Numbered from the stretch's first letter, positions 5,264-58,290 are shown. The stretch is DNA of 64,000 nt from Candidatus Nomurabacteria bacterium (GCA_020632445.1 JACKFN010000003.1:17118-81117), one strand, 5' to 3'. Translations and numbers: made by a program. The notes: generated by a model from the letters alone, not told the origin.

Positions 5264-5316
5264 ATCGACCCAACTCTCCATGTGTGCATAAGTTTTGTGC
5301 CTATATGAAGAGGGTA

Positions 5317-5345
5317 TTGACAAAAGTGTAAAATTGTGCTATACT
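5317..5345 (+). promoter_or_regulatory. sigma70 promoter with extended -10 (TTGACA-17-TGcTATACT)
   Basis: TTGACA 5317-5322, 17-nt spacer, TG 5337-38, TATACT 5340-5345; near-identical in layout to the promoter at 3164 and to the -10 of the cassette module. Confidence 0.5.
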
Positions 5346-5827: not shown

Positions 5828-8248
<2,421 letters not shown>

Positions 8249-8536
8249 TCCTCACCCCGCGCCAAAGCTTCGGCTGAGGCGCGGGTCGTCGGAACCTCGC
8301 GTTCTAACCTAAAAAATCCCACCTTATTCCCTTGAGCGCATGACCGTCCATCATGCGCTCGGGAACCCAAATCAAAACATTTATCAGAGCTGACTTACTT
8401 CAAGTCATCTGTGACAAATGTTTCAAAGACATTTGAAAATTGGTGAAGTCGTGCGATCAGGAAATATATAGCATGTATTCCTTGATCGCCCGGCACATAG
8501 CCGAAACCACAACGGTTCGACATGGAGGAGAATCCC

Positions 8537-17171: not shown

Positions 17172-18437
17172 TTAGGAGAGTTCAACGAGAACGAGAGGGA
17201 TGTCTTCTGGTAAAGGTATGTGGCTTGGCTCTGTACCTTTATGGAAGATTTTCCAGAGTTTGGGTACTTCATTGAGTATACACGTGTCTTCGTATGGAGA
17301 AGGGGAGATAGCCGCAATGTTTGGCACGAGCGTCCTTTCTCTCAATGCAAAATACTTTTTGGTAATATGATGCTCCTCACGAAGTTGCATAATATACCAC
17401 TCTTTACTCCATTTTTCGATATTTTTTTGTGAAACTACACGAAAAGCTTCTACTTGAAGTTCAGGAATAGGAATCATGCCGAGCACAGATTTGTGTGAAA
17501 GGAGACCAGGTTGAATCGTTTCTCCCCAAAAATTAAAGTCTCCGCCATAGCCATACACGTGATCATCGTAGTCTCTGGCGATATTCATAACCTCCTGGGC
17601 AAGTCGGTACGCAAGGGCGCTGTTGCGGTGTCCTTTTTTGTATGATTGCAATAGGAATGAAGTGTATTTACGTGGTTGTTTTCCGATATCTCCAAATCCA
17701 CCCCATGGATTGACTACGGCACCCCCAATAAGTTCATCATTGGCATTATAGATATGAATCATTTTCATATCATCCATTTTACTCCCTGATAAAAAAATTT
17801 TTGGATAAAAAATGCCAAAGCCATTTTCGCGCTCAGCCACTTCTTGCTCGTAAATGGGAAGCCAGGCAGAAAAGCTTTCTCTGGTCATGGGAAGAATTTC
17901 AAATCGGTATTCTTCGGATTTTTTGACATAGTAGCGAGCTTTTTTGGCTCTTCGGGCAGGAAGGTATTCCCATGGTTCAAGTTTGCTTCCAACTTTGGCA
18001 TACCAGCGTACCATTTCAGATCTGAGAAAAAAACCTTGCTCCTTGAGCTGAACCCAGAGTTTTTTTGTCGGTTGCGCGATACTGAGTGTTGTTGGCTGTA
18101 CTATTTCGAGGAGTTTTTGTTCTCTTTCGCTGGAATACTGATCGGGAAGTATCGTAAGGTGGATGAGTCCGCAGGGGGTTACACAAAGATGTGCTATTGC
18201 GATGTCCTGCTGCAAAAGAACAATGTTACCGACTTGGTTTTTTACACACCATGGAACCGTGTCTCTGTGAAAGTCGTCTAGTGAAAATCGCACTTCTTTG
18301 ACATGATGATCATTTTCAAAAGCGTTTTTGTCTATCCATGATTGTATATTAATGTTTTGTATTTCAAAATCGACCAGTGGGGCAGCATATATTGACTTTG
18401 GGGTATAAAAAGGGAGTTGTCCAAGGTTAAATGACAT
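17172..18437 (-). CDS. hypothetical protein (421 aa)
   Basis: Long intact ORF with good coding appearance; no motif I can name confidently. Confidence 0.45.
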   Translation of the reverse strand: MSFNLGQLPFYTPKSIYAAPLVDFEIQNINIQSWIDKNAFENDHHVKEVRFSLDDFHRDTVPWCVKNQVGNIVLLQQDIAIAHLCVTPCGLIHLTILPDQYSSEREQKLLEIVQPTTLSIAQPTKKLWVQLKEQGFFLRSEMVRWYAKVGSKLEPWEYLPARRAKKARYYVKKSEEYRFEILPMTRESFSAWLPIYEQEVAERENGFGIFYPKIFLSGSKMDDMKMIHIYNANDELIGGAVVNPWGGFGDIGKQPRKYTSFLLQSYKKGHRNSALAYRLAQEVMNIARDYDDHVYGYGGDFNFWGETIQPGLLSHKSVLGMIPIPELQVEAFRVVSQKNIEKWSKEWYIMQLREEHHITKKYFALRERTLVPNIAAISPSPYEDTCILNEVPKLWKIFHKGTEPSHIPLPEDIPLVLVELS

Positions 18438-18776: not shown

Positions 18777-19241
18777 CTATTCAAAGTATTCACGTAGTGC
18801 CTGTGCGTGGAATTTTCTCTCTTCAGGTGTGGAGCGTTTGGCTTTCCATAATTCTGTTTCAAAGTTGTCATCTTCAAACCGAGGAAAAACATGCATATGG
18901 TAGTGGAACGCGTGTTGGCCGCCAGCAGGCTCATTATGCTGCGTTATCGTGACGCCATCAACATTCCGTATCTCTTTGAGTGCGATAGCTATTTTTTTGG
19001 ACAAATCCATTATCCTGTGACCAACTCCTTGTGGAAGGTTGTATAGATTTTCGTGGTGCTCTAATGGAACAATAAGGGGATGCGCTTCGCTGCCAAGTAC
19101 TGATTTTGAGCTAATAAATCCCATTACTAGGTCGTCTCGATAAAAGATGTCATCTTGGACGATCCAAGTATCTTCATTTTCGATTCCTTGAATAGCAATA
19201 CAGATGGGGCAGTTATAGTCGCTTGGAGCAGCGTTGTACAT
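18777..19241 (-). CDS. HIT (histidine triad) family nucleotide hydrolase/transferase
   Basis: C-terminal AFHYHMHVFPR = HxHxHxx histidine triad. Confidence 0.8.
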   Translation of the reverse strand: MYNAAPSDYNCPICIAIQGIENEDTWIVQDDIFYRDDLVMGFISSKSVLGSEAHPLIVPLEHHENLYNLPQGVGHRIMDLSKKIAIALKEIRNVDGVTITQHNEPAGGQHAFHYHMHVFPRFEDDNFETELWKAKRSTPEERKFHAQALREYFE

Positions 19242-19310
19242 AAGAGTAGAGTTGTTAGGTTACTTTTATCTGAGTATAGCAAAATAGCTTTCCAGTTAAA
19301 ACCTCGTTTG

Positions 19311-19460
19311 CGGGTACAAACAAAGGAAAAATAAAAACCGCATATTACAGCGATTTTTTTGTTTGAAAAAGGTGGAGCCGAGCGAAGGAGGATGTAGAAC
19401 TGAGCATAGGCGATTTAGTCACCTATTGCTCTGTATTCCAAGTTCATAAGTTCACTTTTT
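19311..19460. repeat. cassette module copy 1 (terminator + promoter intergenic repeat)
   Basis: aaaaaccgcatattacagcgattttttt ... ggagccgagcgaaggaggatgtagaactg ... aagttcataagttcac; supplies promoter to HIT gene. Confidence 0.75.
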
Positions 19461-19539
19461 TGTAGCAGTAATTCAGTGAAATAAAAATTCTTCTTTGTTC
19501 GTGGTTTACTGCCATGGCTTTCAATTAAATACATTGACC

Positions 19540-19568
19540 TTGACAATTTACCTGAAATAAGGTATAAA
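19540..19568 (+). promoter_or_regulatory. sigma70 promoter TTGACA-17-TATAAA for 19705 gene
   Basis: TTGACA 19540-45, 17-nt spacer, TATAAA 19563-68. Confidence 0.45.
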
Positions 19569-19704
19569 AGTGGCTTAGCAATAAGAGCGATTAGAGAATA
19601 GTATTAAAAGTCGATTTGTAGTACTCTTATAAAGAGAATGAATATCATTTTCCTTAATAAGACAGTGTTACATACTTAATTTTGACTCGTAGACAATAAA
19701 CAAT

Positions 19705-20352
19705 ATGGCAGGTTATACTAAATTTGGCAGAGGTCGCTCAACTGGTTCTGGTGGAGGAAGAAGAAATTCTGGTGAAAGAAGAAGTTTTGGGAGTAGAAGA
19801 GATTCAGGAGGAAGACGAGATTTTGGGGAGAGAAGTAATTTTGATAAGCACAAGTTTTCGGCCACTTGTGGTGACTGTGGAAATCGTTGCGAGGTGCCGT
19901 TTAAGCCAACAGGAAAATTTCCTGTGTATTGTTCGGACTGCTTTAAAGGACAATCAGGTGGAAAAGAAAAGTCTTCATTTTCATCATCAAGAAACTTTGG
20001 AACAGATGGTGGTTATTCAAAACGTGATGGAGGGCAAAAAAGATTTGAGAAAAAATTTGAGGCTCCAAAGTCAAGCGGTATATCACAAAAGCAGTTTGAT
20101 AGCCTACATGATAAGCTTGATAAAATTTTAGAGCAAGTGAGAAATTTGGAGAAACAAATTCACGAAGAAAAACAGGTTATGCCTGACGAAGAATCTTCAT
20201 CAAAGAAGACGGTAGAGAAAAAAATCAAGGAAGAAAAGCCAAAGAAAGCAGCAAAAAAGAAAGTCGCGACAAAAAAAACAGTGGCAAAAAAGTCCGCTGC
20301 CAAGAAAGTGACAAAGAAAAAAGCTGTCGCCCATAAGACAAAAAAGAAGTAA
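19705..20352 (+). CDS. RGG-rich / zinc-ribbon / Lys-rich (histone H1-like tail) putative nucleic-acid-binding protein
   Basis: N-terminal RGRSTGSGGGRR..GGRRDFGER, CGDCGNRC...CSDC zinc ribbon, C-terminal KKAAKKKVATKKTVAKKSAAKK. Confidence 0.55.
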   Translation: MAGYTKFGRGRSTGSGGGRRNSGERRSFGSRRDSGGRRDFGERSNFDKHKFSATCGDCGNRCEVPFKPTGKFPVYCSDCFKGQSGGKEKSSFSSSRNFGTDGGYSKRDGGQKRFEKKFEAPKSSGISQKQFDSLHDKLDKILEQVRNLEKQIHEEKQVMPDEESSSKKTVEKKIKEEKPKKAAKKKVATKKTVAKKSAAKKVTKKKAVAHKTKKK

Positions 20353-20466
20353 GTGATAAAAAGTGAAGCGGAAAAACCACCGATAATCGGTGGTTTTTTG
20401 ATATTGAGCCGAGTAACGGAGTATGTGAGAACAGGTAAGCTACCATAGCCCTTAAGATTTTCTCTG

Positions 20467-20979
20467 CTAGGTGCTCTTGTGAATCTTTATGTACTTTGCT
20501 TCCTCTACTTTTTTCTCAAGACCTTCTTCGTGGGTGTATTTGAACTCAGATCCATCCTTGGACGTAAATGTAAAGTCTGCACCTCGGTAGTCTCTCGAGT
20601 CTGCTTCATAGGATTTTACGATAGAGCAAAAAATAGCGGTCCTCTCACATATTTTTACCTCTACGACCAAGAAGAGGCCTGTTTCTTCGAAATGGTAGGT
20701 GTCATTTCCGTCTGTGTATTTTTCTGTTGTAGTTGCCATATCGAAGAGCAGAACAATAAACAAACTGTAAACCAAGAGTAACAGTGCTGGGATGAGCCAC
20801 AATAGACGGATGCCTCTTTTTTTGTAAGAGAATAGGGCGTAGCTTAAAAAAATGACAATAGGCGTAGTCCATGACAAAAAAGACGCAACTGGTGGTATGA
20901 ATAGATATGAAAAGGACTTTCCTGTGTAGGTAAGAATGAAAAAGAAGAGGACGATCTCAATGATTGGTGTAGATTTCAT
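20467..20979 (-). CDS. membrane protein, hypothetical
   Basis: 170 aa, two to three N-terminal TM helices then soluble acidic domain. Confidence 0.45.
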   Translation of the reverse strand: MKSTPIIEIVLFFFILTYTGKSFSYLFIPPVASFLSWTTPIVIFLSYALFSYKKRGIRLLWLIPALLLLVYSLFIVLLFDMATTTEKYTDGNDTYHFEETGLFLVVEVKICERTAIFCSIVKSYEADSRDYRGADFTFTSKDGSEFKYTHEEGLEKKVEEAKYIKIHKST

Positions 20980-21039
20980 AGGTGTTTTAGGTATACTGTA
21001 TACTTTTGTATATGGTTTGTCTATACGTTGTAAACTGGA

Positions 21040-21175
21040 CTATTGGTGCAATAAAAAACAAAAACCGCTTATTACAGCGATTTTTTCATTTGAAAAACGG
21101 GGAGCCGAGTGGAGAAGGATGTTAGAACTGGGAATGGGGGATTGGGGAGGTTATTGCCACACCTAACGAGTTCAT
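21040..21175. repeat. cassette module copy 2
   Basis: caaaaaccgcttattacagcgattttttcatttgaaaaacggggagccgagtggagaaggatgttagaactggg...ttattgccacacctaacgagttcatgaagttca. Confidence 0.8.
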
Positions 21176-21294
21176 GAAGTTCATACGCTCATCCCAGCCA
21201 TGCTCAGTTGAAAATGAGTTTTCAATAGAGCATGAAGGGGTGATGTGACATGTCAGCCTTGGCGGGGTGGGCCGACATGCTTCTTCGTGATGGG

Positions 21295-21873
21295 TCAGTG
21301 GGTGAGTAGGAGTGGGGACTCACGGATCTGGATGGGGAGCACCTCATGGATGATGCCGTAATGCACTGCCTCTCGCGCATTCAGCGTGGCCTCTTGGCGC
21401 ATGAGGTCCAGGAAGACCGCGGGGCGTACTCCGGTACGCCTTGCTATGAACTGAAGAAACCAGCTTTGCGCCACCCGCATTTGGAATAGCCACTCTTCCA
21501 GGTTTTCTCTGTCCTCTGCTTCGATGCGTTCTTGCTCATCGATGACCGTTTCTATGTCGCAGATGGTGATCTCGTCGAGCGGATCACCAATCATGGCTCG
21601 TACTTCGTGGAAGTAGAACGTGGAGTCACCGAAAGCGTACCGCTTGTGTCCCAAAAGGGTTAGGAGGACAGCGGCGGAGCTGACGTCCTGTGAGAGTGTG
21701 ATGATACCCTGGCGTTCGATCGCAGGACCGAGGGATGAGAAGAAGTCGAATCGACCTCCAGGGGAGTTGACGTAGATCCCGTTGGGAGGGTTGACGGAGA
21801 GCAGAGCCCTGAGTACGGTGAACACACCTTCTGCCGTGATCTCGTCGAAAAAAGGAAAAAGTCGCAGGTGCAT
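21295..21873 (-). CDS. ClpP/S14-like peptidase family protein (compositionally GC-rich cassette gene)
   Basis: VNSPGG (ClpP INSPGG), DVSSAAVLLTLLGHKRYA (Ser/His region); visibly higher GC than neighbours. Confidence 0.55.
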   Translation of the reverse strand: MHLRLFPFFDEITAEGVFTVLRALLSVNPPNGIYVNSPGGRFDFFSSLGPAIERQGIITLSQDVSSAAVLLTLLGHKRYAFGDSTFYFHEVRAMIGDPLDEITICDIETVIDEQERIEAEDRENLEEWLFQMRVAQSWFLQFIARRTGVRPAVFLDLMRQEATLNAREAVHYGIIHEVLPIQIRESPLLLTH

Positions 21874-21989
21874 CTATGACTCGCAGTGCCGGTGAATTGT
21901 CAACCTCAAATTGAGGTTTGTCAGATACAATCTGAACATTTATATATAGCATGTTCTGGCTGAAATGTCAAACGGAAAAAAGTTTAAGC

Positions 21990-22092
21990 TTCTTCGATTA
22001 ATGGCAAAGCAAAACCAAAAAAACCGCTTATTACAGCGATTTTTTGTTGTGGAAAATATGGAGCCGAGTAACGGAGGATGTTAGAACTGGAA
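21990..22092. repeat. cassette module copy 3
   Basis: aaaaaaccgcttattacagcgattttttgttgtggaaaatatggagccgagtaacggaggatgttagaactgg. Confidence 0.8.
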
Positions 22093-22096
22093 AAGA

Positions 22097-22927
22097 TTAT
22101 TCAGGCCTTTTTTCCCCAAGTGCAAGAGTCATGTGTTCATCAGACGCATAGGTACATAGAACACGGCCAGCTAATGCAACACCATTTTCAACAATTTTAT
22201 CCTCAATGTCACGAGTAAGCTGTATGCTGCCAGATGGGCCTTGTGATGCGAATAGGACTGCGGTTCCTATTTGGTTTGGAAGTTCATAGACTGAGTCAGG
22301 TTTTTCGTGCATCATTTCCTCCTGATAATACGGTTTATCAGCAAGTTTTATTGTAATAGGCTCAGGACCATCACCAAAGTCAAATTGTGCCTGTATGACT
22401 CCATCGTCAGTAACTTCTATTGTATCACCAACGAGGGGATTAAGTTTGCGAAAAAAGTTATCTAAGACGGATTCATCTGAAAAGATGGTGTCAACGAGTT
22501 CAATTTTTCGTGCTCCTAGTGCTAATACATACTCAATATCATCTCCAGATCCAAGGTAAACGGTTGGAAAATCCTTGAGTATACCCGCAGGGATGAGCTC
22601 TTTTCTTAGAATTTCAGAAACGATTCCCTGTTTTTCTCGGATTTTAGCTTGACGAGGGTTCGTTGTAGTATCAATATTTTCAAATGCTGCTGTGCGACTC
22701 GGGCTATGGAGCAGGGTTTCTTTTTCGGCAGCACTTAAGGGTTCCCAATCGATATTAAGTCCGAGGGCTTCTAGAGCCTCTTTTTCGATTTTTTGCAGTA
22801 TTTCATCATTTTCTGTTTCTATGGCAACACCAGGCAAAACCCGAACAGGTGTTCCATCATCAAATATTGAGTCATCATCTACACAAAGATGTGGTTGATT
22901 TTCTGGGCTGTATTTTTTTCTTGCCAT
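22097..22927 (-). CDS. hypothetical protein
   Basis: Start taken at MARKKYSPENQ (ORF track extends further upstream into the module); acidic soluble protein. Confidence 0.5.
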   Translation of the reverse strand: MARKKYSPENQPHLCVDDDSIFDDGTPVRVLPGVAIETENDEILQKIEKEALEALGLNIDWEPLSAAEKETLLHSPSRTAAFENIDTTTNPRQAKIREKQGIVSEILRKELIPAGILKDFPTVYLGSGDDIEYVLALGARKIELVDTIFSDESVLDNFFRKLNPLVGDTIEVTDDGVIQAQFDFGDGPEPITIKLADKPYYQEEMMHEKPDSVYELPNQIGTAVLFASQGPSGSIQLTRDIEDKIVENGVALAGRVLCTYASDEHMTLALGEKRPE

Positions 22928-22959
22928 AGAAATGTCTTTGGTTTTGTTTTTATAAAGTA

Positions 22960-23090
22960 TAGCAAAATAGTAACTCAGTTCAAACCTCGGTTCCCAGTAC
23001 AACAATGCAAAAAACAAAAACCGCTTAATACAGCGATTTTTTATTGCAGAAAATATTGAGCCGAGTAACGGAGGATGTTAGAACTGGCAA
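22960..23090. repeat. cassette module copy 4
   Basis: cagttcaaacctcggttcccagtacaacaatgcaaaaaacaaaaaccgcttaatacagcgattttttattgcagaaaatattgagccgagtaacggaggatgttagaactgg. Confidence 0.85.
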
Positions 23091-23480
23091 TTACTTTTTA
23101 CAAAGATAATATCCTTTACACTTGATACTTGTGCAACTGCAGACTTTACTGGAGCCATCTATTTCAGTTTCAGAATAGTCGCATGTGATTTCATCCCCTT
23201 GGTTGATTTTCTGAAGGGAAATCAAGTACAAACTTCCGTTTTCGAATTTCAACGAGGTATTTGGATTGCAAGAATGATTTACCCAATTCAGAATACTTGG
23301 ATCGTCTACCCATACAATATCTTGAACGTATGCACGCTGTGGTAATGCATGCTTATAGATTTGGTTTAGAGGAACACAATAGAATTTTTTATGTCTTTTA
23401 ATGTTTATACCAGCAAAAACACCTTTGCCATGAATTTTGCTCTTTGATAAATATAATTCTGTGCTTATTGCGTCTGCCAT
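23091..23480 (-). CDS. SET-domain protein (putative lysine methyltransferase)
   Basis: NHSCNPN and GDEITCDY SET signature motifs plus post-SET Cys cluster CSCTSIKCKG. Confidence 0.8.
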   Translation of the reverse strand: MADAISTELYLSKSKIHGKGVFAGINIKRHKKFYCVPLNQIYKHALPQRAYVQDIVWVDDPSILNWVNHSCNPNTSLKFENGSLYLISLQKINQGDEITCDYSETEIDGSSKVCSCTSIKCKGYYLCKK

Positions 23481-24133
23481 AAACGTAAAATTGCTTGTGC
23501 CAACAACTCTAGTGGATCAATTATTACATATGGACAATCTTTAAGCATAAGGCTGAGTTCAGTACACCCAGTCAAAAGGATGTCTTCTTTGTCTACGTAT
23601 TTTTCAATAATATCCCTTACCTTTTTAGATTGTTGCTGAGGTGTCGTTCCTATGACGTACTTTTTAATACAATCCGAAATAGCCTCTCTGTCTTCGGAAG
23701 ATGGAACAATACAATTAGCTTCAGGATAACTGTATAGACTATTGTCATAGCTTGTTTGGGTAGATAAGATTAAAATCCTTTTTTCTATATCTAGAATCTT
23801 CTTTTTTACCTCTTGTCGTAGATCTAGAATGTTAATGGATGTGGTACTTTGCAACTCATCAAAAAAAACATGTGCAGTATTGCATGCAATGGCTATAAAA
23901 TCTACCCCAGCTCTTTCAAGGAGAGCAATTCCTTCTTTATACGGCCAAAGAGTTTCTTTGGTGATTTTTCCTGTGATTAGATCAGGAGCAGGGATGCTAT
24001 TTATTACAATGTGCGGATAATCGGCATTGTTGCGGATAAGTTGTCTTTCTCTACACATCTTGATAAGATGACCGTATAGCCAGGCTGATGACTCTGGACC
24101 GATACCTCCTAAAATACCAATAGTTTTTTTCAT
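23465..24133 (-). CDS. aspartate/glutamate racemase family protein
   Basis: GILGGIGPESS, IACNTAHVF, LLTGCTELSL: the two Cys motifs of Asp/Glu racemases; overlaps SET gene by 16 nt (same cassette). Confidence 0.8.
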   Translation of the reverse strand: MKKTIGILGGIGPESSAWLYGHLIKMCRERQLIRNNADYPHIVINSIPAPDLITGKITKETLWPYKEGIALLERAGVDFIAIACNTAHVFFDELQSTTSINILDLRQEVKKKILDIEKRILILSTQTSYDNSLYSYPEANCIVPSSEDREAISDCIKKYVIGTTPQQQSKKVRDIIEKYVDKEDILLTGCTELSLMLKDCPYVIIDPLELLAQAILRLWQTQ

Positions 24134-24149
24134 ATACTTATACTTTAGC

Positions 24150-24335
24150 GGAAATGGCTAAGTAGTTCAAACCTCGGTTACGGGTAAAGCAATGCAAAAA
24201 ACAAAAACCGCTTATTACAGCGATTTTTTCTTTTAAAAAAGATTGAGCCGAGTAACGGAGGATGTTAGAACTGAGGATGGGGGATTTAGTAGCTTATTGC
24301 CACTCCTGATAAGTTCACTATGTTCATAAGTTCAT
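24150..24335. repeat. cassette module copy 5
   Basis: cagttcaaacctcggttacgggtaaagcaatgcaaaaaacaaaaaccgcttattacagcgattttttcttttaaaaaagattgagccgagtaacggaggatgttagaactgagg...aagttcactatgttcataagttca (stop codon of next gene inside). Confidence 0.85.
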
Positions 24336-25051
24336 TTTTGAACTTGTTCCAGGTAAGTGGTGAGAATATCTCTAAGTGCATCTATAGTTTTGGCAATGGT
24401 TTCGTCAATCAAAGTGTGGAAGCCTTTGTCGCTAATTTCCTCCCGCATATACTCTTCGATGGCTGCATCTGAGTAAAAAATTGTGTCAACTTTTTTATCT
24501 ATGGTCGAAAAATATGCATATTTAGTTTTTTCACCAAGATTTCTAGTTTTATTCAAAAATGCGTTTTTAAAAGAGTTCTCTAATTTGCGTTCCTTTCTGT
24601 TATAGTGAAAGGAGACTTTGTTTCTGACAGCCTCCAAAGTTAAATTTAGATGAGACTTGTCTTGCCCTTTTGCAATTTTCAGCAGTTCATCCCAGTCAGA
24701 TCGGGTCTTATGAGAGACAGACTGGATAACATCTGAAAAAAGCTTTGTAGAGAATAGTTTACTGTTTGTACTGTCTGTATGTTTTAGGAATTCAAAAAAT
24801 TCATGGAGAATACCCACAAAGTACTTGTTTAGATGAACATTCATACCGCAGTAAGATCCAGAATGAGCGGTTGTTTCAATAGGTTTAGGTTTTCGATAGG
24901 TTGACTGAAATAAGCGGACTATTTTTTTTTGGCGTTGAAGATCATTGTAGACAAAAGCAAGATTGAGAAAAAAAGAGAACACAATATCTCCATCTTTTTT
25001 ATACAACTTTTTTGGATCAGTATTCCTTAACTCTCCTGGAAAATCTTCCAT
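24332..25051 (-). CDS. hypothetical protein (239 aa)
   Basis: Intact ORF; no recognisable motif. Confidence 0.5.
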   Translation of the reverse strand: MEDFPGELRNTDPKKLYKKDGDIVFSFFLNLAFVYNDLQRQKKIVRLFQSTYRKPKPIETTAHSGSYCGMNVHLNKYFVGILHEFFEFLKHTDSTNSKLFSTKLFSDVIQSVSHKTRSDWDELLKIAKGQDKSHLNLTLEAVRNKVSFHYNRKERKLENSFKNAFLNKTRNLGEKTKYAYFSTIDKKVDTIFYSDAAIEEYMREEISDKGFHTLIDETIAKTIDALRDILTTYLEQVQK

Positions 25052-25078
25052 AGTCTACATTTGTATATTTTTAATGTA

Positions 25079-25774
25079 TTATGCTACATTCCAAATACAA
25101 GCGCCGTCTTTTGCCTGTTTTTCAACGAATTGCCAAGTTTTTGCATCGTAATGTGCACTTGATGGATATGGAGGCTTATTATGTGCTTTTTCATCCAGAT
25201 CTTCAGGAGCATTATAAACAGTATTGCCACCAGCAAAAAAGTTCGCGGTGCCGACACTTACAACATGTACGGGCGTTTCTGGATAAGCATTTTTGAGTGC
25301 TCGACTGAGTGTCCCAGATCCTCCCATACACCAAATTTCAGGTGCATCTATCTTTGCTTCTTTGACGACTTCTGTAAGTTTTGATTCAAATGCTGGAAAG
25401 TCGAGACCTATTGGTAAAAAAAGTGCATTGTTCTGCTTGGCATATTCCTGGGCAGTTTTGCTCGCTTCTACTTGTGTGTGTGCTCCTTCGACAATATGGT
25501 AGGTTACATTTGGCATTGCTACCGTCTTTTGAAAAATGTCAGTATCTTTTTTGGGTGACAGGTAAAAGAGGGTGACTTTCTTATTTACTTCTTGTGCGGT
25601 AAGAGCAATGGCGTATGCTGCATGCCCATAGTAATCGCAGGCGTAGACAAGTTCTTCCTCTGGTATGGTATCAATGAGTTTTTTGAATGCTCGTCTTTTG
25701 GTACCTCCTTTATATAGATCGTCGCGTACTACTTGAAATTTTCCTACTTTTTCAATTGTAAAGGCATCGGTCAT
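25079..25774 (-). CDS. hypothetical protein (231 aa)
   Basis: Intact ORF 27 nt upstream of the previous gene (two-gene cassette). Confidence 0.5.
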   Translation of the reverse strand: MTDAFTIEKVGKFQVVRDDLYKGGTKRRAFKKLIDTIPEEELVYACDYYGHAAYAIALTAQEVNKKVTLFYLSPKKDTDIFQKTVAMPNVTYHIVEGAHTQVEASKTAQEYAKQNNALFLPIGLDFPAFESKLTEVVKEAKIDAPEIWCMGGSGTLSRALKNAYPETPVHVVSVGTANFFAGGNTVYNAPEDLDEKAHNKPPYPSSAHYDAKTWQFVEKQAKDGACIWNVA

Positions 25775-25794
25775 AGATATAGGTTATTTGTAGT

Positions 25795-25935
25795 AGAGTA
25801 TAGCAAAATAGCACTTCAGTTCAAACCTTGGTTCCCAGTACAACAATTCAAAAAACAAAAACCGCTTATTACAGCGATTTTTTAATTTGAAAAACGGTGA
25901 GCCGAGTAACGGAGGATGTTAGAACTGAGCAGTGC
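25795..25935. repeat. cassette module copy 6
   Basis: tatagcaaaatagcacttcagttcaaaccttggttcccagtacaacaattcaaaaaacaaaaaccgcttattacagcgattttttaatttgaaaaacggtgagccgagtaacggaggatgttagaactgagc. Confidence 0.85.
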
Positions 25936-25945
25936 AGATGGCAAC

Positions 25946-26851
25946 TTACAATAAACCTCCGACCAATAGCCTAAATTCTTTTTTTGTATTGTAGATTTTT
26001 GTGAGTTTTTCAAAATTTTTATCAGGATCAAGAAGGAGATTCGCGAGTTTATCAACTTCTTTTAACTCTGATTCTGTCATGTTTTCAAAAACCTTGGGGT
26101 TCGAATATTTTGGTCCGTGGTTATAATGAATTTCATTACTCATCAGACTATGAAAATCATAAAAAAGAGACCATAGCACGGGGAGCATACCAAATACATG
26201 TCCTGCATTGTAAAAGTGCTTTGCTGGGATCTTTCCTGAACGAACATCTCGCCAAGCTTGTGCAGGGAAGTCGAATTGACCATTTTTGATATCATAAGGG
26301 TCAACGCTTTTGTCAAAAATTGATAGAGATCCGTCTACGTCGATTGTGACCCAACGTTTTTGTTTTTTATCCCAATATTGATTTATCCAGTGGTCAGTGC
26401 TTACTTTACCAAGAGAACCCATATCAAAATAGTTTGCATGTCCAGCTCTTACTCGGCAAGGAATTCCTTTTGATTTGAGAATTGAGGCCATGAGGATCGA
26501 GGTATATCTACAGGTAAGTATAATTTTATTTTCGGTTTTTCTTTTGAGGGTTAGTCCTTTTTTGTCTCTACGAAAGAGTTCAGCAAGCATCGAAGATGCC
26601 GTTAGTAGGATGTCATCTTCGGGTTGTTTCCACCAAGGAAGCTTTGTCATATCTCCAAAGCGAAGGTCAGCATTGGATCCTGTATTTCCTGCAGCCAGGG
26701 TGGTACGATGAATAATATTTTTACGTACGAGAAGACCAATATCCTCGATGTCATCTGGAAGATTTTTTTTAAGATATTCTTGGTAACATCCAGGATAAGT
26801 GAAGGTGCTAAACTGTTTATAGTGTTTGATAATTTTTTGTGAAATTTCCAT
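25946..26851 (-). CDS. transglutaminase-like cysteine peptidase superfamily protein (tentative)
   Basis: Cys (ILTCRYTS), His (STDHWINQ), Asp (VTIDVDG) spaced as in the transglutaminase-like catalytic triad. Confidence 0.4.
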   Translation of the reverse strand: MEISQKIIKHYKQFSTFTYPGCYQEYLKKNLPDDIEDIGLLVRKNIIHRTTLAAGNTGSNADLRFGDMTKLPWWKQPEDDILLTASSMLAELFRRDKKGLTLKRKTENKIILTCRYTSILMASILKSKGIPCRVRAGHANYFDMGSLGKVSTDHWINQYWDKKQKRWVTIDVDGSLSIFDKSVDPYDIKNGQFDFPAQAWRDVRSGKIPAKHFYNAGHVFGMLPVLWSLFYDFHSLMSNEIHYNHGPKYSNPKVFENMTESELKEVDKLANLLLDPDKNFEKLTKIYNTKKEFRLLVGGLL

Positions 26852-26889
26852 AAAATGACGATATGATTATGTTGTTGATAGTATATCAG

Positions 26890-27070
26890 AGTAATATGGT
26901 ATGTTCCAGTTCAAACCTCGGTTCCCAGTACAACACTACAAAAAACAAAAACCGCTTATTACAGCGATTTTTTAACTTGAAAAACGGGGAGCCGAGTAAC
27001 GGAGGATGTTAGAACTGGGAATGAAAAGTTGGGCTCTTTACTACCACTCCTGAGAAGTGCATGAAGTTCA
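26890..27070. repeat. cassette module copy 7
   Basis: ccagttcaaacctcggttcccagtacaacactacaaaaaacaaaaaccgcttattacagcgattttttaacttgaaaaacggggagccgagtaacggaggatgttagaactggg...gaagtgcatgaagttcataagttcacc (contains stop codon of 27068 gene). Confidence 0.85.
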
Positions 27071-27478
27071 TAAGTTCACCTCAATAGGATATTGATCTCC
27101 AGCACATGGTAAAAGATCTTTTATTGTTGATGTTTGTTCCATACCTAATACTACCTCAGTTTTCAAATTTTTGTTATTTATTTGGTAGATAAATTCACGA
27201 CATCGTCCACAAGGTGGCAAAATGGTGATGTTTCCTTGGTCGTCTTTTTTAGCGGCTACAATTTTTTTGATTTGATATTGGCCTTGGGTGATCATCTGGC
27301 TTACAGCAGTATGTTCAGCACAAAATCCCATGCCTGATATGGTGTCTATACAAACACCTTTGAATACCGTTCCATCCATGGTTTCAAGTGCGCAGCCCAC
27401 ACCACCCATATCAGCATCATCAATACGAATTGGGTGAACTACTTTGAGAGCTTCATTTATAATTTCTTGGTTGGTCAT
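27068..27478 (-). CDS. cytidine/deoxycytidylate deaminase family protein
   Basis: GFCAEHTAV (H/CAE zinc motif) and PCGRCREF (PCxxC zinc motif). Confidence 0.8.
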   Translation of the reverse strand: MTNQEIINEALKVVHPIRIDDADMGGVGCALETMDGTVFKGVCIDTISGMGFCAEHTAVSQMITQGQYQIKKIVAAKKDDQGNITILPPCGRCREFIYQINNKNLKTEVVLGMEQTSTIKDLLPCAGDQYPIEVNL

Positions 27479-27496: not shown

Positions 27497-28003
27497 TCAC
27501 AGCTTTTTCAGTAGAAAATCTAAAGATTTTGCTAGTTCATTAAATTTTTTCTTTGTATATCCAGTATCATTTGATTCTAGACTTTGTAAATGTATCTTAT
27601 TTCTTTCCGTACGGACTTTATCTAGAATTTTGTACTGAGACTCACTTATTATACTTTTGTCTTTCAAGTATAGATTCAACCTACCAAAAGTAACTCCTTT
27701 ATCATCAATAGAAATTTCCTTTTCTTTTTTCTCGCATATATAGAGATCTGTTGAAATCCCTAAACTTTTAGCAGGTATCTTATGCTTAATGGGATATTCC
27801 CGAGCCTTATCAATTACATGTTTGGGTTTTGGTGTTGAACGTTTAACCAATTGATATACGAATCCCTCAATGATAGTGCAAAGTAATATAATTGCCGCCC
27901 TATAATAGGACGATTTGGCTACATTTGATATTCCCTTTTTTTCAGCATGACTAAGTTGCACTGAAACAGCGGTTATTCTACGGTTGACATTATCCTTAAA
28001 CAT
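27497..28003 (-). CDS. hypothetical protein (168 aa)
   Basis: ORF; one TM helix; no motif. Confidence 0.4.
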   Translation of the reverse strand: MFKDNVNRRITAVSVQLSHAEKKGISNVAKSSYYRAAIILLCTIIEGFVYQLVKRSTPKPKHVIDKAREYPIKHKIPAKSLGISTDLYICEKKEKEISIDDKGVTFGRLNLYLKDKSIISESQYKILDKVRTERNKIHLQSLESNDTGYTKKKFNELAKSLDFLLKKL

Positions 28004-29603: not shown

Positions 29604-30926
29604 TTATTGTACAAATTGACTTGGTTTGTAGAATAGGCTTGGGATTATTTCAAGAATTTTGCTTATTGAAAGGATTCCACCGTAACTTTCAAGTTCACCA
29701 TGCAATCCAACTGTTGGAACGCCAAGAAAACAATTTTTTGTTGTATCGATAGCTGTCCCGCCAGAGTTACCGTGGTCGATTTTTGCTGATGTTACATAAA
29801 AGCCATCAACCCTACTCTCTATTCCACTAAGCAATCCTTCAGTGACGGTAAGATTTTCACCACTGACTGAGGGAAATCCATAAATTCTAATCGAATCTCC
29901 TATCTGAGTTTGATCTTCTGTGCACGGTAGAATTGGGAGTGGTTTAAGAGTGGATGGTGTACTTGACGAAAGCTCGAATGTCCAAAAGTCATAATCTTCA
30001 TTTTCTCTCATGGAGTAAGATACGGTGTAAAAAGTGTCTGATAATATGCCTTTTTTGTCAACGCCCATTACTATGCAGTACTCAGGGTATCCAAGACTTA
30101 CATGCATATTGGAAAGTACTCTTGTTTCGGTTATAACGGTTCCAGAACCTTGAGATATGTATTCAAAATTTGGGTCAGTACATAGAATTTTGACAATAGA
30201 TGAAAATAGTTCTGGGTCCGAGTTAGTACTTGTTGTATGGTTTTCAATTATTTCTATAGTCGTTTGAGAGACAAATGATAAACGATCTATTTTCGATGCA
30301 TCATTTCCGTCATAGATTAGAAAATACTTGAAGCGATATTTAGTACGTCTCAGGTCTTCTTTTGTGTTTTCTGTAGCAAGTACATCGACGTTACAGACAA
30401 AGTCAGCACAATCGAGTGATTGAACTTCGTGAGCAAGGGTATTTTTGTAACCGTCTTTCCATTCTGCAAAAGAGATTCGTTCTTGTGCTGGTATACTGAG
30501 CAGACCAAAAGCTCCTTCGTAGTCTCTGAAATCAAGTAGGTTGAAGTATTTACGAATGGCAGTTTCCGCTTCTTCTTTTGAAAATTCTTTTGTGACTATA
30601 TTTGGGGATGAAGTACTAGTGTCTACGTGGGTTTCCTTTTTTAAATTATTGCTTTGGCTTACAGCCATTGAAATGAAAAATATAACTATGACACCTAGAA
30701 CTAATATCAAAATTATCCAAAACAGGAAGATGGGGCTTCTATTGTTTTTTTGTTGTGTGATTTGATTTGTCTGGCTTTGGGTTTGTGGTTTGTGCAGGCT
30801 TGATCCACAAGAGTGACAAAATTTTGATGATTCTTGCTGTTGTTCACCGCAATTGTGACAAAAAGTCATAGAAATATGTATAAAGACAAAAAGCTGCCGC
30901 CCAAATGTAGTCTTACGACTACTCAT
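29604..30926 (-). CDS. zinc-ribbon-anchored protein with C-terminal trypsin-like serine protease domain
   Basis: FCHNCGEQQQESSKFCHSCGSSL (likely true start at MTFCHNCG, ~30869), TM helix, C-terminal IDHGNSGGTAID = GDSGG-type catalytic Ser motif. Confidence 0.5.
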   Translation of the reverse strand: MSSRKTTFGRQLFVFIHISMTFCHNCGEQQQESSKFCHSCGSSLHKPQTQSQTNQITQQKNNRSPIFLFWIILILVLGVIVIFFISMAVSQSNNLKKETHVDTSTSSPNIVTKEFSKEEAETAIRKYFNLLDFRDYEGAFGLLSIPAQERISFAEWKDGYKNTLAHEVQSLDCADFVCNVDVLATENTKEDLRRTKYRFKYFLIYDGNDASKIDRLSFVSQTTIEIIENHTTSTNSDPELFSSIVKILCTDPNFEYISQGSGTVITETRVLSNMHVSLGYPEYCIVMGVDKKGILSDTFYTVSYSMRENEDYDFWTFELSSSTPSTLKPLPILPCTEDQTQIGDSIRIYGFPSVSGENLTVTEGLLSGIESRVDGFYVTSAKIDHGNSGGTAIDTTKNCFLGVPTVGLHGELESYGGILSISKILEIIPSLFYKPSQFVQ

Positions 30927-31104
30927 GCCCGTTTCCAGACACGACCAACCAAGGAGATGAGCGGACAGCTTACTACCTTGGTTGGTTTTGTTGCCATGCC
31001 TCCCTATGGAGGTTTAGGCATAAGTTGTGAGTGGAGTATACCGCAAGTGGTTGACTTATTTCAAGTATTTGTTACTGTGAGAACAACATTGGATTTACAA
31101 GAGT

Positions 31105-35150: not shown

Positions 35151-35298
35151 AATACCTATGCTTACCCATTTCCCGTAAAAGGCCAGAGGCTTTATTGTTC
35201 GTTGTATCAATAAGGCAGTCCTGCCAATGAACAGTCCTCTGGATTGGGATTTGGGTAAGCCAGGACTGTCTTTTGTTTTGCTAACATTTATCAAACAT

Positions 35299-36954
35299 AT
35301 GAAAAAACTACGTTACGCACGCTATACACGTAAATCAACAGACTCAGAGGATAAACAAGTGCAATCTATTGATGATCAGATTCGTGAAATTCAGCCTGAA
35401 ATTGATAGAAGGAATCTTGATGTGGTGATTACTTTTGAAGAGTCAATGTCAGCCAAAAAACCAGGAAGACCAAAGTTTAATGAAATGATGCAGATGATCA
35501 AAGCGGGTGAGATTGATGGAATTGTTTGTTGGAAGTTAAATCGTCTTGCCAGAAATCCTGTGGATGGTGGTGAAATACAGTGGTTACTACAACAGGGAAT
35601 ATTAAAATCCATTGTTACGCCATCAAGGGAGTATCTTCCAAGCGATAATGTATTGATGATGGCAGTGGAGTTGGGTATGGCAAACCAGTTTGTCTTAGAT
35701 TTAAGCAAGGACGTGAAAAGAGGATTGACCACTAAGAATCATAAGGGTTGGAGACCTGGAAAAGCACCAATGGGATACATAAATGACAAGTATGGTGATA
35801 AGGGGAATAAAAAGATCTATGTGGATGAGGAAGTGTTTCCATTGCTTCGTCAGGTGTGGGATATGTTGCTTACAGAGCGGTATAGCATACATGAGCTGGC
35901 TAAGATAGCCACAGAGCAGTTTGGCTTGAAAAATAAGAGTGGGTTGGGATTACACGACAGCACCTTATATGGAATATTCACAAATACATTTTACTATGGA
36001 GAATATACATATGCTGGTGATGTATTTCAAGGAGCGCACACTCCGCTTATCACGGTAGAGGAGTTTGATAGGACACAGCAGATATTAGGTAAGAAGGGAA
36101 AGCCTCGCCCGAAGAATAAAAGACTCCCATACAATGGAATTATTGATTGCGGTGAATGTGGTGGTATGATTACTACAGAAGATAAGCGCAAGGTCATAAA
36201 ATCCACTGGAGAAGTTCGTAGGTACCTGTATCATCGTTGTACAAAGCGAAAGTCTCATGTTTCTTGTGGTCAAAAGCCAATAAAGCATGAAGAGTTAACA
36301 AATCAGATAGATGGATATCTAGAGCAAATAACTATACCAACAGAGTTTCTCTCTTGGGCTATTAAATGTCTCAGAAGAGAAAATGAACTTCAGGACAATC
36401 AACGCAATAGAATCCTCTTAAGCCAGCGAAAGGCTTATGACCTATGCTTGAAGCGCCTGAGCAACCTTACAACGCTTTATATAAGCCCTGAGAACATTGA
36501 CAGGTCTCTACTTAATGAAGATGAGTTTAGAAAACAAAAGGAAGAAATGCGCAAAGAGAAGCTTAGGTTGGAACAGGAAATAAGAAAGGTTGAAAGCGGT
36601 GCAGATGAATGGTTCGAACTGGCAGAGAAGACATTTAACTTTGCGACCTATGCTCGACATCATTTTGAAGAGGGAAATTTTGAAACAAAAACAAACATAC
36701 TTCGTTGTCTAGGAAGTAATTTCACACTCAAAGATGGAAAACTTTCTATTGAATTGCAAAAACCATTTGTGACCTTAAAAGAAGGTTTTGAAAGTGCACC
36801 TTTAAAGGAATATAGGTTAGAACCAGGCAAATTTGCCTTAATAGAAAAGAAAAACAGCCATTTGAAGGCTGCTTCTGAGCTTGTGAGCCGTTATCCAGGA
36901 TTGAACTGGAGACCTCATCCTTACCATGGATGCGCTCTACCAACTGAGCTATAA
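35299..36954 (+). CDS. large serine recombinase (resolvase/invertase catalytic domain + recombinase domain + zinc ribbon)
   Basis: YARYTRKSTDSEDKQ..SIDDQ (Ser catalytic motif), GIVCWKLNRLARN, CGECGG...YHRCTKRK...CGQK; start at MKKLRY; 3' end overlaps tRNA-Thr. Confidence 0.8.
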   Translation: MKKLRYARYTRKSTDSEDKQVQSIDDQIREIQPEIDRRNLDVVITFEESMSAKKPGRPKFNEMMQMIKAGEIDGIVCWKLNRLARNPVDGGEIQWLLQQGILKSIVTPSREYLPSDNVLMMAVELGMANQFVLDLSKDVKRGLTTKNHKGWRPGKAPMGYINDKYGDKGNKKIYVDEEVFPLLRQVWDMLLTERYSIHELAKIATEQFGLKNKSGLGLHDSTLYGIFTNTFYYGEYTYAGDVFQGAHTPLITVEEFDRTQQILGKKGKPRPKNKRLPYNGIIDCGECGGMITTEDKRKVIKSTGEVRRYLYHRCTKRKSHVSCGQKPIKHEELTNQIDGYLEQITIPTEFLSWAIKCLRRENELQDNQRNRILLSQRKAYDLCLKRLSNLTTLYISPENIDRSLLNEDEFRKQKEEMRKEKLRLEQEIRKVESGADEWFELAEKTFNFATYARHHFEEGNFETKTNILRCLGSNFTLKDGKLSIELQKPFVTLKEGFESAPLKEYRLEPGKFALIEKKNSHLKAASELVSRYPGLNWRPHPYHGCALPTEL

Positions 36955-48084: not shown

Positions 48085-48250
48085 TTTCTTAGAAAAGTTC
48101 TAATCTTGGTAAGAGTATAAAAAAACGTCGCTAAAATTAGCGACGAAATGCTGAGCAGAGGATCGTAAAGGATGTTGGAACGGGAATTCAAAATAGGGAA
48201 GGTTATGAAACTATACCAAGTATATAGGTGGACGTCCCCCATGCGAATTG
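48085..48250. repeat. divergent copy of the cassette module (copy B)
   Basis: aaaaaacgtcgct-aaaatt-agcgacgaaatgctgagcagaggatcgtaaaggatgttggaacgggaattcaaaatagggaaggttatg... Confidence 0.5.
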
Positions 48251-56642: not shown

Positions 56643-56860
56643 AATAGTATCACATAGTTTATGTGTGGATTTCTTTATCGGTCTTTTGCGTTATTATATC
56701 TTATACTCTTAGTTTGTTTATTATATCAGATGTTGATCATCAGTTTGATTTTCATCTCGTCAATAGAAAGAAGTTGTTAAAATGAGCGACGAATTACGGG
56801 GCGAGGGATTGTAGAGGGACTTGAAATTATTGTTTAACTGAGTAATTGTTAATCAAATCA

Positions 56861-58089: not shown

Positions 58090-58290
58090 AGTATAGCAGA
58101 TTAACAGATTGAGTTCGATTCCTACCGCCCACAATAAAAAAATGCCGCTAAAATTAGCGACGAATTACACAGCAGGGGATAGTAGAGGAAGTTGGAACCA
58201 GAATACAGAATAGGGAAGGCTATGTAAGTATACCTAGTGTATAAGTGGGAGGGTGTACCCCCAGGTGGACTCACTATATTTGATTAAAGT
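58090..58290. repeat. divergent copy of the cassette module (copy C)
   Basis: gtatagcagattaacagattgagttcgattcctaccgcccaca...gccgctaaaattagcgacgaattac...ggaagttggaaccagaatacagaatagggaaggctatg... Confidence 0.5.

Follow-up and report, generated by a model that had tools for sequence, protein, structure and literature searches.

Results

Gene content of the locus

The stretch of DNA analysed here (64 kb, hereafter the window) is a segment of bacterial chromosome carrying genes for SmpB, TypA/BipA, MsrB and an efflux pump, and no match to it was found in phage and viral collections. The genes relevant to this study are listed below; where Pfam is given, it backed the assignment made in a preliminary description of this DNA.

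17172..18437, minus strand: 421-aa gene, a conserved anchor bounding the array, on the side away from tRNA-Thr, in both genomes compared
18777-19241, minus strand: HIT gene (Pfam)
19705-20352, plus strand: treble-clef zinc-finger gene (Pfam), convergent with the 170-aa gene
20467-20979, minus strand: 170-aa gene
21295-21873, minus strand: ClpP-like gene (Pfam Clp protease)
22097-22927, minus strand: 276-aa gene
23091-23480, minus strand: SET gene (Pfam)
23465-24133, minus strand: Asp/Glu racemase gene (Pfam)
24332-25051, minus strand: 239-aa gene
25079-25774, minus strand: 231-aa PALP-like gene
25946-26851, minus strand: transglutaminase-like gene (Pfam transglutaminase core)
27068-27478, minus strand: cytidine deaminase gene (Pfam)
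35227..36954, plus strand: large serine recombinase, with an open reading frame (ORF) antisense into tRNA-Thr; absent from L002, the second genome
36885..36958, minus strand: tRNA-Thr(GGU); the module box derives from, or is homologous to, its T-arm and 3' acceptor strand; putative island seed

The genes had been described as all co-oriented, but the zinc-finger gene lies on the plus strand and faces the 170-aa gene. The ClpP-like gene, already noted as GC-rich, is a clear composition outlier, with a GC content of 0.56 and a GC3 of 0.67 against 0.27–0.33 in its neighbours. The cassette units are single genes of 1–1.6 kb, with no integrase remnants recognised between them.

A dedicated recombinase, which the preliminary description had proposed to seek near the array, was not found; the 64 kb contain a single recombinase, the large serine enzyme abutting tRNA-Thr, which marks the newest insertion next to that gene and is carried on the 9.8-kb insertion that fills the gap between tRNA-Thr and the array. 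The array modules do not look like att products of this recombinase, which is itself part of its own inserted element. Pfam scans of the main candidate ORFs revealed no tyrosine recombinase, including IntI, in the window, the gene calls for cassettes between modules included no integrase, and no transposase was found in the window.

A repeated module precedes the cassette genes

Alignment and nhmmer (E 1e-42 to 3e-18) confirmed a repeated module of 130–200 nt, present on the minus strand at 19.26–27.08 kb as seven full copies and one partial copy. Three more, diverged copies lie at 48.1, 56.8 and 58.1 kb, beyond the interval first described.

26880..27081, minus strand: long form; GTGAAC repeats (giving the cytidine deaminase stop codon), pseudo-tRNA box, terminator hairpin, inverted T-arm copy with the -35, and -10 TGATATACT
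25797..25942, minus strand: short form, upstream of the 231-aa gene; homology starts at CAGTTC, followed by TTGAAC, a 16-nt spacer and TGCTATACT
24142..24335, minus strand: long form; gives the 239-aa gene its TGA stop codon
22952..23101, minus strand: short form; spacer and hairpin loop closest (94%) to the native copy after tRNA-Thr in L002
21966..22104, minus strand: short form; box and hairpin intact, right half diverged, another promoter-like sequence next
21001..21193, minus strand: long form; variant box, right half diverged
20352..20449, minus strand: partial module (m20400); box and a different hairpin between convergent genes, without the promoter half
19256..19454, minus strand: long form, upstream of the HIT gene, without a co-oriented gene upstream
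48116..48191, minus strand: diverged module (box, hairpin, -10) upstream of an inositol monophosphatase gene
56759..56834, minus strand: diverged module between GNAT and GDT1 genes
58131..58207, minus strand: diverged module upstream of a DUF2268 protease gene

Eight of the 11 copies are clustered within 8 kb, all 11 lie on the minus strand and ten have a minus-strand gene directly downstream. Pairwise identity over the full length is 62–89%, so that 'near-identical', as the copies had been called, overstates their similarity. The 25-nt box TCTAACATCCTCCGTTACTCGGCTC occurs five times exactly and once with two mismatches on the minus strand at 20.4–27.0 kb (chance expectation, 0), the hairpin AAAAATCGCTGTAATAAGCGGTTTTT seven times with at most one mismatch, and the right-end motif GAACCGAGGTTTGAACTG five times. 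The GTGAACTTATGAAC segment is restricted to the four long-form copies and provides the stop codon of two genes (TGA at 27068–27070 and 24332–24334); the notion that the module supplies the stop of the upstream gene thus holds for these two but not for modules in general. Inverted-repeat ends, also attributed to the module at the outset, are present in the five best copies but broken without compensation in diverged ones.

The left boundary of homology falls exactly at CAGTTC in three short modules and in the cassette shared between the window and L002, while right-hand and some left-hand boundaries are heterogeneous. The left arm contains three direct RTGAACNT repeats; TGAACT-type motifs recur in the module, with three direct copies in the left arm, one inverted copy in the box and one or two at the right end. 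They look like candidate protein-binding sites, a feature that the model favoured below leaves unexplained.

Because the window is a metagenome-assembled contig, mis-assembly of the cassette order across repeats of 130–200 nt is possible in principle. Support from independent short contigs covers just two stretches; the module at 19256..19454 is covered by Logan contig L004 at 100% identity.

Predicted transcription signals

A hairpin followed by a T-run is present in all module copies. Every copy of AAAAATCGCTGTAATAAGCGGTTTTT received a terminator-like score (22 such sites against 6.3 expected in the region), and the hairpin is 96% paired over 14 copies, with one compensatory change. The best copies also carry TTGAAC, 16 nt and TGnTATACT. 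TTGAAC/TGCTATACT, originally described as a general feature of the module, is intact in three copies (25.8, 22.96 and 19.28 kb) and variant in two more, and is replaced by other promoter-like sequences at 22.0 and 21.0 kb. Most units have a predicted -35/-10 promoter 20–35 nt before the start codon, several of them with an extended -10, in line with the earlier view that each unit has its own promoter and terminator signals.

Two copies that face a convergent gene, m20400 and the L002 tRNA copy, lack the promoter half. At 19.3 kb, and in L002 at 3.99 kb, the terminator half has no upstream co-oriented gene to terminate, which suggests that the unit travels as a block. From these signals, we infer that each module copy would end upstream transcription and start that of the downstream gene.

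The module resembles the 3' end and flank of tRNA-Thr

The module box matches the T-arm and acceptor 3' strand of tRNA-Thr at 22 of 28 positions (z 3.8–5.6 against shuffles). In L002, the 3' end of tRNA-Thr continues straight into the remainder of the module, in register with the window boxes: a terminator composed of A-tract, hairpin and T-tract, an inverted T-arm copy with the -35 TTGAAC, and an extended -10 directly follow the tRNA. By blastn, L002 2067-2167 aligns to window 23063-22964 at 85%, and the right end of the module is an inverted copy of the T-arm (13/14). These alignments indicate that the module is a degenerate 3' end of tRNA-Thr(GGU) joined to the native downstream flank of that tRNA.

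The box copies are degenerate, and there is no good copy of the tRNA 3' segment elsewhere in the window. The modules extend ~100 nt past the tRNA segment, into the terminator and promoter, and share derived indels, suggesting that they were copied from one another. In both tRNAs the 3' end is still the native one and co-varies with the 5' strand, so that the tRNA itself has not undergone crossover within the T-arm using the pseudo-box.

Cassette content differs between two genomes

The whole interval was compared between two distant genomes, the window and L002, whose backbone genes share 61–68% amino acid identity; the turnover described here is therefore seen at the level of species, not strains. 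Gene order is common to both (msrB, YibE/F, tRNA-Thr, modules, 421-aa gene), and the 231-aa gene is the sole cassette they share, with homology beginning exactly at CAGTTC. The variable gene content proposed earlier was thus recovered, and neither random scatter of the repeats nor constancy of the cassettes, either of which was held to speak against that proposal, was observed. Different content in the same interval shows, as far as these two sequences allow, that cassettes turn over at module boundaries. The dS of the shared cassette is 0.74, against 2.83, 3.18 and saturation in backbone genes (n=3), and this low value is the apparent mark of recent exchange.

The non-coding modules are 74–90% identical between the two genomes, while backbone synonymous sites are saturated, and the box and hairpin of m27000 and L002_m4000 are 100% identical. 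Sub-blocks of the modules are mosaic within and between genomes, with the nearest neighbour changing from block to block. In m23050, spacer 1 is 94% identical to the tRNA-adjacent copy of L002 and 38–50% identical to the copies at 27.0 and 25.9 kb of its own genome, to which its right half is 91–94% identical. In a third lineage (L006), two modules follow unrelated genes, with the box kept and a different hairpin sequence. The box is kept, with the same indels, in all three lineages; this points to a specific role in addition to homology and speaks against the model favoured below.

Discussion

A proposed tRNA-seeded island of accessory genes

We consider it somewhat better than an even bet that a small uncultivated bacterium of the CPR (Parcubacteria group) carries here a hyperplastic island of accessory genes with tRNA-Thr(GGU) as its seed, and that the modules are copies of the tRNA 3' end and flank that serve as both transcription signals and portable homology. 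The first displaced module copy probably arose from the original integrase-mediated insertion at tRNA-Thr. With a module upstream of every gene, the same unit would precede each of them and could therefore act as portable homology. Exchange between two copies would remove a cassette, either by deletion or by excision as a circle, and recombination of such a circle, or of incoming DNA, with any resident copy would insert or swap a cassette. The role in gene turnover is our inference, as is the mechanism: modules more likely exchange by RecA-type homologous recombination or by gene conversion, as proposed for the promoter-early stem-loops (PeSLs) discussed below. For the mosaic sub-blocks, homologous recombination is as good an explanation as a new site-specific system. 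The coincident left boundaries at CAGTTC, however, fit a fixed crossover site better than homologous exchange and count against the favoured model.

Alternative explanations

These boundaries speak for an alternative that we regard as unlikely, namely a dedicated site-specific cassette system, integron-like in function, in which a recombinase encoded elsewhere in the genome would treat the module as an att-like site. This enzyme would move promoter-bearing cassettes into and out of the tRNA-Thr locus by crossover at CAGTTC; inverted repeats resembling the T-arm (CCAGTTC ... GAACTGG) would form part of the site, and TGAACT iterons would be its arm sites. The sharp left edges in three copies and in the shared cassette fit this scheme, as do the three direct RTGAACNT repeats and a primary site overlapping the tRNA T-arm, a classical integrase target; moreover, the box flanks are kept across three lineages whose central 7 nt differ. 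End-to-end folding of the 120-nt unit is also more stable than that of shuffled sequences (z -1.7 to -3.2), but the end helix is 65–71% paired over 14 copies, covaries no more than shuffles do and is broken in diverged copies. Further points against such a system are the absence of a tyrosine recombinase from the 64 kb, the serine recombinase being tied to its own element with att products unlike the modules, the native, co-varying tRNA 3' ends, and the heterogeneous right and partly left boundaries with mosaic sub-blocks.

It is less probable still that the modules are purely regulatory repeats, that is, a terminator and promoter, with perhaps a box for a regulator to bind, that a set of genes has in common for co-regulation, whose similarity selection or gene conversion maintains and which play no part in gene gain or loss. 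In favour of this view, module orientation strictly follows that of the downstream gene, conservation extends to the -35 and extended -10, copies with no co-oriented gene after them (m20400, L002 tRNA copy) have lost the promoter half, and the diverged copies elsewhere likewise lie between co-oriented genes. Such repeats would not account for the near-complete difference in cassettes within the same interval, a shared-cassette dS far below that of the backbone, terminator halves with nothing to terminate (19.3 kb; L002 3.99 kb) or a foreign ClpP-like gene (GC3 0.67) between modules.

A selfish repeat of the MITE/REP type, spread by transposition and carrying promoter and terminator signals incidentally, as Correia elements (CREEs) of Neisseria do, is a highly doubtful reading. 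The module is short (~120 nt), can give its neighbours transcription signals, has imperfect terminal inverted repeats (CAGTTCTAAC ... GTTTGAACTG, in five copies) and occurs several times, with diverged copies elsewhere in the window. However, the inverted repeats have no target-site duplications around them, the dinucleotides on one side being different from those on the other; homology runs past both repeats (to the -10 on the right and for 70 nt on the left in long forms); and all 11 copies share one strand, an orientation tied to the downstream gene. No cognate transposase was found in the window, and one copy is the native flank of a tRNA.

Least credible of all is a true integron cassette array lacking its integrase (CALIN): although the unit is within the attC length range, can fold as a hairpin and has AAC/GTT-type ends in the expected orientation to the genes, neither core fits the consensus (TTCTAAC against RYYYAAC, 6/7; GTTTGAA against GTTRRRY, 5/7), the cores are one base off exact complements, the fold has a one-sided 11–12-nt bulge in place of paired L boxes, a symmetric unpaired spacer and extrahelical bases, covariation is lacking, the 64 kb contain no IntI, a promoter-like sequence comes with every cassette and the site demonstrably derives from a tRNA flank. 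The preliminary description had likewise set the module apart from attC; of the single-strand fold it raised, end pairing was recovered but an attC-like shape was not.

Relation to known systems

Integron and CALIN arrays resemble the locus in separating unrelated small genes by one family of ~120-nt imperfect palindromic sites, in content that varies between relatives and in some ORFs ending inside the site. They differ in attC core and folded architecture, in their generally promoterless cassettes and in that the module precedes, rather than follows, the gene unit with which it travels.

The array is closer to the promoter-terminator shuffling units of T4-like phages. PeSLs are composite terminator/promoter motifs of T4-like phage hyperplastic regions, in which circular DNAs arise from exchange between neighbouring motifs (Arbiol et al. 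2010, PMC2839356; Comeau et al. 2014, PMC4122927). Shared with them are a conserved intergenic sigma-70-type promoter and terminator stem-loop (predicted here), a unit spanning the upstream stop codon to the downstream gene start, clustering ahead of small accessory genes within a variable region, unit-bounded insertions, deletions and replacements between relatives, and homologous recombination between copies as the proposed mechanism. The array is nevertheless an analogue rather than a member of this class, as it lies in a bacterial (CPR) chromosome and not a phage, is anchored at a tRNA gene and has a longer module (130–200 nt) that includes the decayed 3' end of a tRNA and a T-arm copy in inverted orientation.

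Tycheposon islands of Prochlorococcus are tRNA-seeded, contain scattered partial tRNAs and have tRNA-Thr(GGT) among their targets (Hackl et al., bioRxiv 10.1101/2020.12.28.424599). Here too, the island starts at a tRNA gene (in L002 the first module directly follows tRNA-Thr), direct repeats of the tRNA 3' part spread through it and the newest element, that of the serine recombinase, sits beside the tRNA with older material pushed outward. In contrast to tycheposons, the repeats are not clean ~40-nt tRNA copies but run ~100 nt beyond the tRNA into the terminator and promoter, and the units are single 1–1.6-kb genes with no integrase remnants recognised between them.

The module had been put forward as an undescribed kind of site. 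Its apparent origin in a tRNA-Thr 3' end and flank instead places the array in a known class, the tRNA-seeded islands with partial-tRNA remnants, and these, combined with terminator/promoter shuffling modules of the already known PeSL type, are the best-fitting frameworks. As each copy combines a predicted terminator with a predicted promoter, every accessory gene of the island would be an insulated, self-expressed unit.

A repeated module separates the genes of the array

The window is a segment of a bacterial chromosome, encoding SmpB, TypA/BipA, MsrB, an AcrB-type pump and one tRNA-Thr(GGU). Reading its minus strand from 27.5 to 19.0 kb, combined with repeat search, alignment and profile search, revealed a recurring 130–200-nt intergenic module composed of a box, a terminator hairpin, a right end containing a -35 element and an extended -10. 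Of the 25-nt box, TCTAACATCCTCCGTTACTCGGCTC, there are five exact copies and a sixth with two mismatches (none expected by chance), while the hairpin AAAAATCGCTGTAATAAGCGGTTTTT was found seven times at ≤1 mismatch, the right-end motif GAACCGAGGTTTGAACTG five times and GTGAACTTATGAAC three times inside the array. Alignment and profile search resolved 7 full copies and 1 partial copy (20352–20449), all on the minus strand, and a broader nhmmer profile located 3 diverged copies beyond the interval first described, at 48.1, 56.8 and 58.1 kb, likewise on the minus strand. The repeated modules reported in the preliminary description are therefore real, but not near-identical as stated there, with full-length identities of 62–89%.

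The gene calls made in that description were confirmed by Pfam, except that the genes are not all co-oriented: a zinc-finger gene (19705–20352) lies on the plus strand. GC3 is 0.27–0.33 for most array genes versus ~0.4 for the backbone, and 0.67 for the ClpP-like gene. The transglutaminase-like cassette protein (25946–26851) has >1200 homologues at 60–72% identity, reaching many CPR lineages, one Woesearchaeota archaeon and Francisella novicida, a span which points to wide transfer of this gene. A HEPN (RiboL-PSP) gene (27497–28003), possibly encoding a toxin or a defence function, lies directly upstream of the cytidine deaminase gene, at the edge of the array nearer the tRNA. A phage or plasmid origin was rejected, as neither viral contigs nor phage or plasmid records gave a match.

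Two further features lie outside the array. Positions 3300–9000 form a GC-rich island (GC 0.56–0.72 versus ~0.40 around it) encoding large repeat proteins that are rich in Cys and contain thrombospondin type 3 and DUF4215 repeats; direct repeats occur within it at 6.0–7.6 kb. In a low-GC CPR genome such an island has the look of foreign DNA, or possibly of a chimaeric assembly. Tandem repeats of 21 nt (7 codons) at 9393–9583 fall within a 138-aa minus-strand ORF (9276–9692) with weak Pfam matches to coiled-coil families.

Every copy's hairpin scores as intrinsic-terminator-like. The promoter signals ascribed to the modules are intact in three copies (TTGAAC, 16 nt, TGCTATACT) and variant in two, and hence not uniform, while the stop-bearing GTGAAC segment, previously assigned to each module, is restricted to the 4 long-form copies. 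The left arms of these long forms contain three direct repeats of RTGAACNT at 8–9-nt spacing, which also occur in L006, a locus from a third lineage.

RTGAACNT repeat sites
19404–19455, window
21131–21193, window
24272–24335, window
27016–27081, window
1968–2000, L006
3885–3910, L006

Adding the box's inverted AGTTC and the right-end TGAACT to the left-arm repeats brings the TGAAC-type motif to 5 or 6 copies in one module, a set that looks like protein-binding sites. The diverged copies at 48117–48231 and 58134–58248 have in common a 115-nt left arm, 83% identical and unlike that of the array, which suggests a second sub-family of module-like units elsewhere in the genome.

Searching Rfam at the gathering threshold or at E values up to 10 gave no family match for the modules, tRNA included, beyond chance terminator-like matches. 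RNAalifold analysis of the long form recovered the terminator hairpin and a 5-bp box stem as the sole conserved elements, with no covariation. Two candidate functions were rejected: a short left-arm reading frame (such as MNFMHFSGVV...) differs between copies in length and frame and showed no synonymous bias of substitutions by inspection, and the central 7 nt of the box, a possible anti-Shine-Dalgarno mimic (CCTCC), are not kept in L006.

The module originates from the 3′ end of a tRNA-Thr gene

In genome and metagenome collections, the exact 21-nt core of the box was found in one other organism only, a Candidatus Magasanikbacteria MAG, where loci L001, L002 and L005 represent three independent assemblies with identical arrangement. 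The tRNA-Thr gene of L002 (1999–2072) continues straight into a module, in the order ...CCAGTTCAATCCTGGGTGACGGCTCA, ATATTTTCTGTAATAAAAAATCGCTGTATTAAGCG... and GGTTTGAACT. The window copy at 23.05 kb matches this downstream flank at 85% over 101 nt, and at 94% in the spacer block, and carries CCAGTTCTAACATCCTCCGTTACTCGGCTCA where L002 has the tRNA end. Global alignment of this box with the 3′ part of the tRNA gave 22/28 matches with two small indels (z 3.8–5.6 over shuffles). Moreover, the right end of the module is an inverted copy of the tRNA T-arm (13/14), within which the -35 hexamer lies; this accounts for the terminal inverted repeats noted previously. On the basis of the flank match, the box alignment and the inverted T-arm, we conclude that the module is a copy of the tRNA-Thr 3′ end with its native terminator, joined to the next promoter.

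The indels relative to the tRNA are common to all array copies, which therefore arose by copying from one to another, not by separate derivations from the tRNA. For the long form, a decayed tRNA 5′ part was also considered as the source of the 70-nt left arm and rejected, local alignment being no better than shuffles (p 0.18–0.89).

Gene content turns over at module boundaries

L002 and the window have in common the order msrB, YibE/F, tRNA-Thr, modules and a conserved 421-aa gene. In the interval bounded by the tRNA and the 421-aa gene, L002 holds 3 modules with HTH-PALP, 231-aa, 241-aa, GDSL lipase, 148-aa and asparaginase genes; the window holds a 9.8-kb insertion followed by 8 modules with ten different genes. 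The 231-aa gene is the sole cassette present in both, and homology to it starts exactly at the module CAGTTC and stops at the stop codon of the gene. Its synonymous divergence is low beside that of the flanking genes.

dS between the window and L002
231-aa cassette gene: 0.74
421-aa gene: 2.83
YibE/F: 3.18
msrB: saturated

The non-coding modules are 74–90% identical between the window and L002 by blastn, with box and hairpin blocks reaching 100%. Because the nearest neighbour of a copy shifts block by block, both within and between genomes, the sub-blocks are mosaic. In the third lineage (L006, L007, L008 and L013), 2 modules follow unrelated genes, NUDIX and PNPOx, and keep the box flanks and GTGAAC repeats, with hairpin sequences that differ. 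No modules were found near homologues of the 231-aa or transglutaminase-like genes in distant CPR genomes.

Short contigs from the window's own strain agree with this metagenome-assembled contig or break at modules, and those that agree confirm only 17.0–19.6 kb and the junction where the 231-aa and 239-aa genes lie side by side. As judged from whole-interval comparison of two mutually distant genomes, cassette turnover and the low dS of the 231-aa cassette demonstrate activity of the locus over evolutionary time.

A serine recombinase element adjoins the tRNA gene

The 9.8-kb insertion adjoining the window tRNA-Thr encodes a large serine recombinase and several unknown genes.

Features of the insertion
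~31.1–36.9 kb: serine recombinase element, including DUF5659 and unknown proteins, missing from L002
35227–36958: recombinase ORF, antisense across the tRNA-Thr terminator hairpin and nearly the whole tRNA before its stop
30907–31020, minus strand: LOOT RNA (RF03000; 81 bits, E 1e-13)

Given this antisense read-through, the last ~23 codons of the recombinase are the tRNA complement. A search for the ends of the element found none that were clear. The LOOT RNA sits between a trypsin-like/zinc-ribbon gene and the unknown plus-strand gene block ending in the serine recombinase, and may, from this position, mark the edge of the inserted element. The recombinase was rejected as the enzyme of the array, as the boxes of the array differ from the att products to be expected and the tRNA 3′ end has no other good copy.

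Proposed recombination between modules

From its sequence, each module copy is predicted to end the upstream transcript and start the downstream gene. The promoter half is absent where the next gene is convergent (the 20.4-kb partial copy and the tRNA-adjacent copy of L002). The terminator half is kept without a co-oriented upstream gene at 19.3 kb and at 3.99 kb in L002, which indicates that the module travels as a block with its downstream gene. Modules in direct orientation would permit deletion or circular excision of the gene between them, and exchange with any resident copy would permit insertion or replacement of a cassette. Given the mosaic sub-blocks and heterogeneous boundaries, we favour homologous recombination or gene conversion between modules. 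The closest parallel in working is the promoter-early stem-loop (PeSL) of T4-like phages, a terminator/promoter motif whose shuffling by homologous recombination has been proposed and partly demonstrated (PMC2839356, PMC4122927); the array differs in its cellular genome and tRNA-derived component.

A site-specific cassette-capture system of CPR bacteria, with the module as recombination site and the recombinase encoded elsewhere, seems to us unlikely. Its ~120-nt site would have evolved from the tRNA-Thr T-arm and flank, with inverted T-arm copies and TGAACT iterons; by recognising it, the recombinase would transfer self-expressed genes one at a time, inside a lineage or from one lineage to another, with the tRNA gene as primary attachment site. 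Such a system is consistent with three features: several left boundaries fall together at CAGTTC, lineages share a conserved box, and TGAACT-type repeats are present. However, the tRNA-Thr 3′ ends co-vary with their own 5′ strands in both genomes (GCCGTTAT/ATAACGGC versus GCCGTCA/TGACGGC), and the pseudo-box has therefore not displaced the real tRNA end; nor was a dedicated recombinase found in the 64-kb window. What stands of the new integron-like system first envisaged is cassette turnover at module boundaries, whereas the tRNA-flank site, the close functional precedents and the recombinase search speak against it.

As first described, the sites are not attC: core consensus, folded architecture, covariation (none supports attC-like end-to-end pairing), integrase and promoterless cassettes all fail, and target-site duplication, orientation and homology boundaries likewise separate the modules from MITEs. 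The array does fit among tRNA-seeded islands such as the tycheposons of Prochlorococcus (bioRxiv 10.1101/2020.12.28.424599), having partial-tRNA remnants and its newest element closest to the tRNA, but its unit is far longer than an att remnant, is copied from copy to copy and divides single genes. Within the limited literature collection searched, we found no earlier account of such an array in CPR bacteria.

Implications for gene exchange in CPR bacteria

The genomes of CPR bacteria are very small and contain few mobile elements that can be recognised, and the ways in which these bacteria acquire and exchange accessory genes are consequently poorly understood. The locus described here would offer a compact route, in which one portable tRNA-flank unit renders any gene self-expressed and insulated and also supplies the homology or site for its movement. 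If exchange is homologous, modular shuffling of the PeSL type reaches beyond phages into cellular genomes. Were it instead site-specific, the locus would represent a new cassette system, a counterpart of integrons in function but distinguished by its site, its promoter-bearing cassettes and its use of a tRNA gene for primary attachment.
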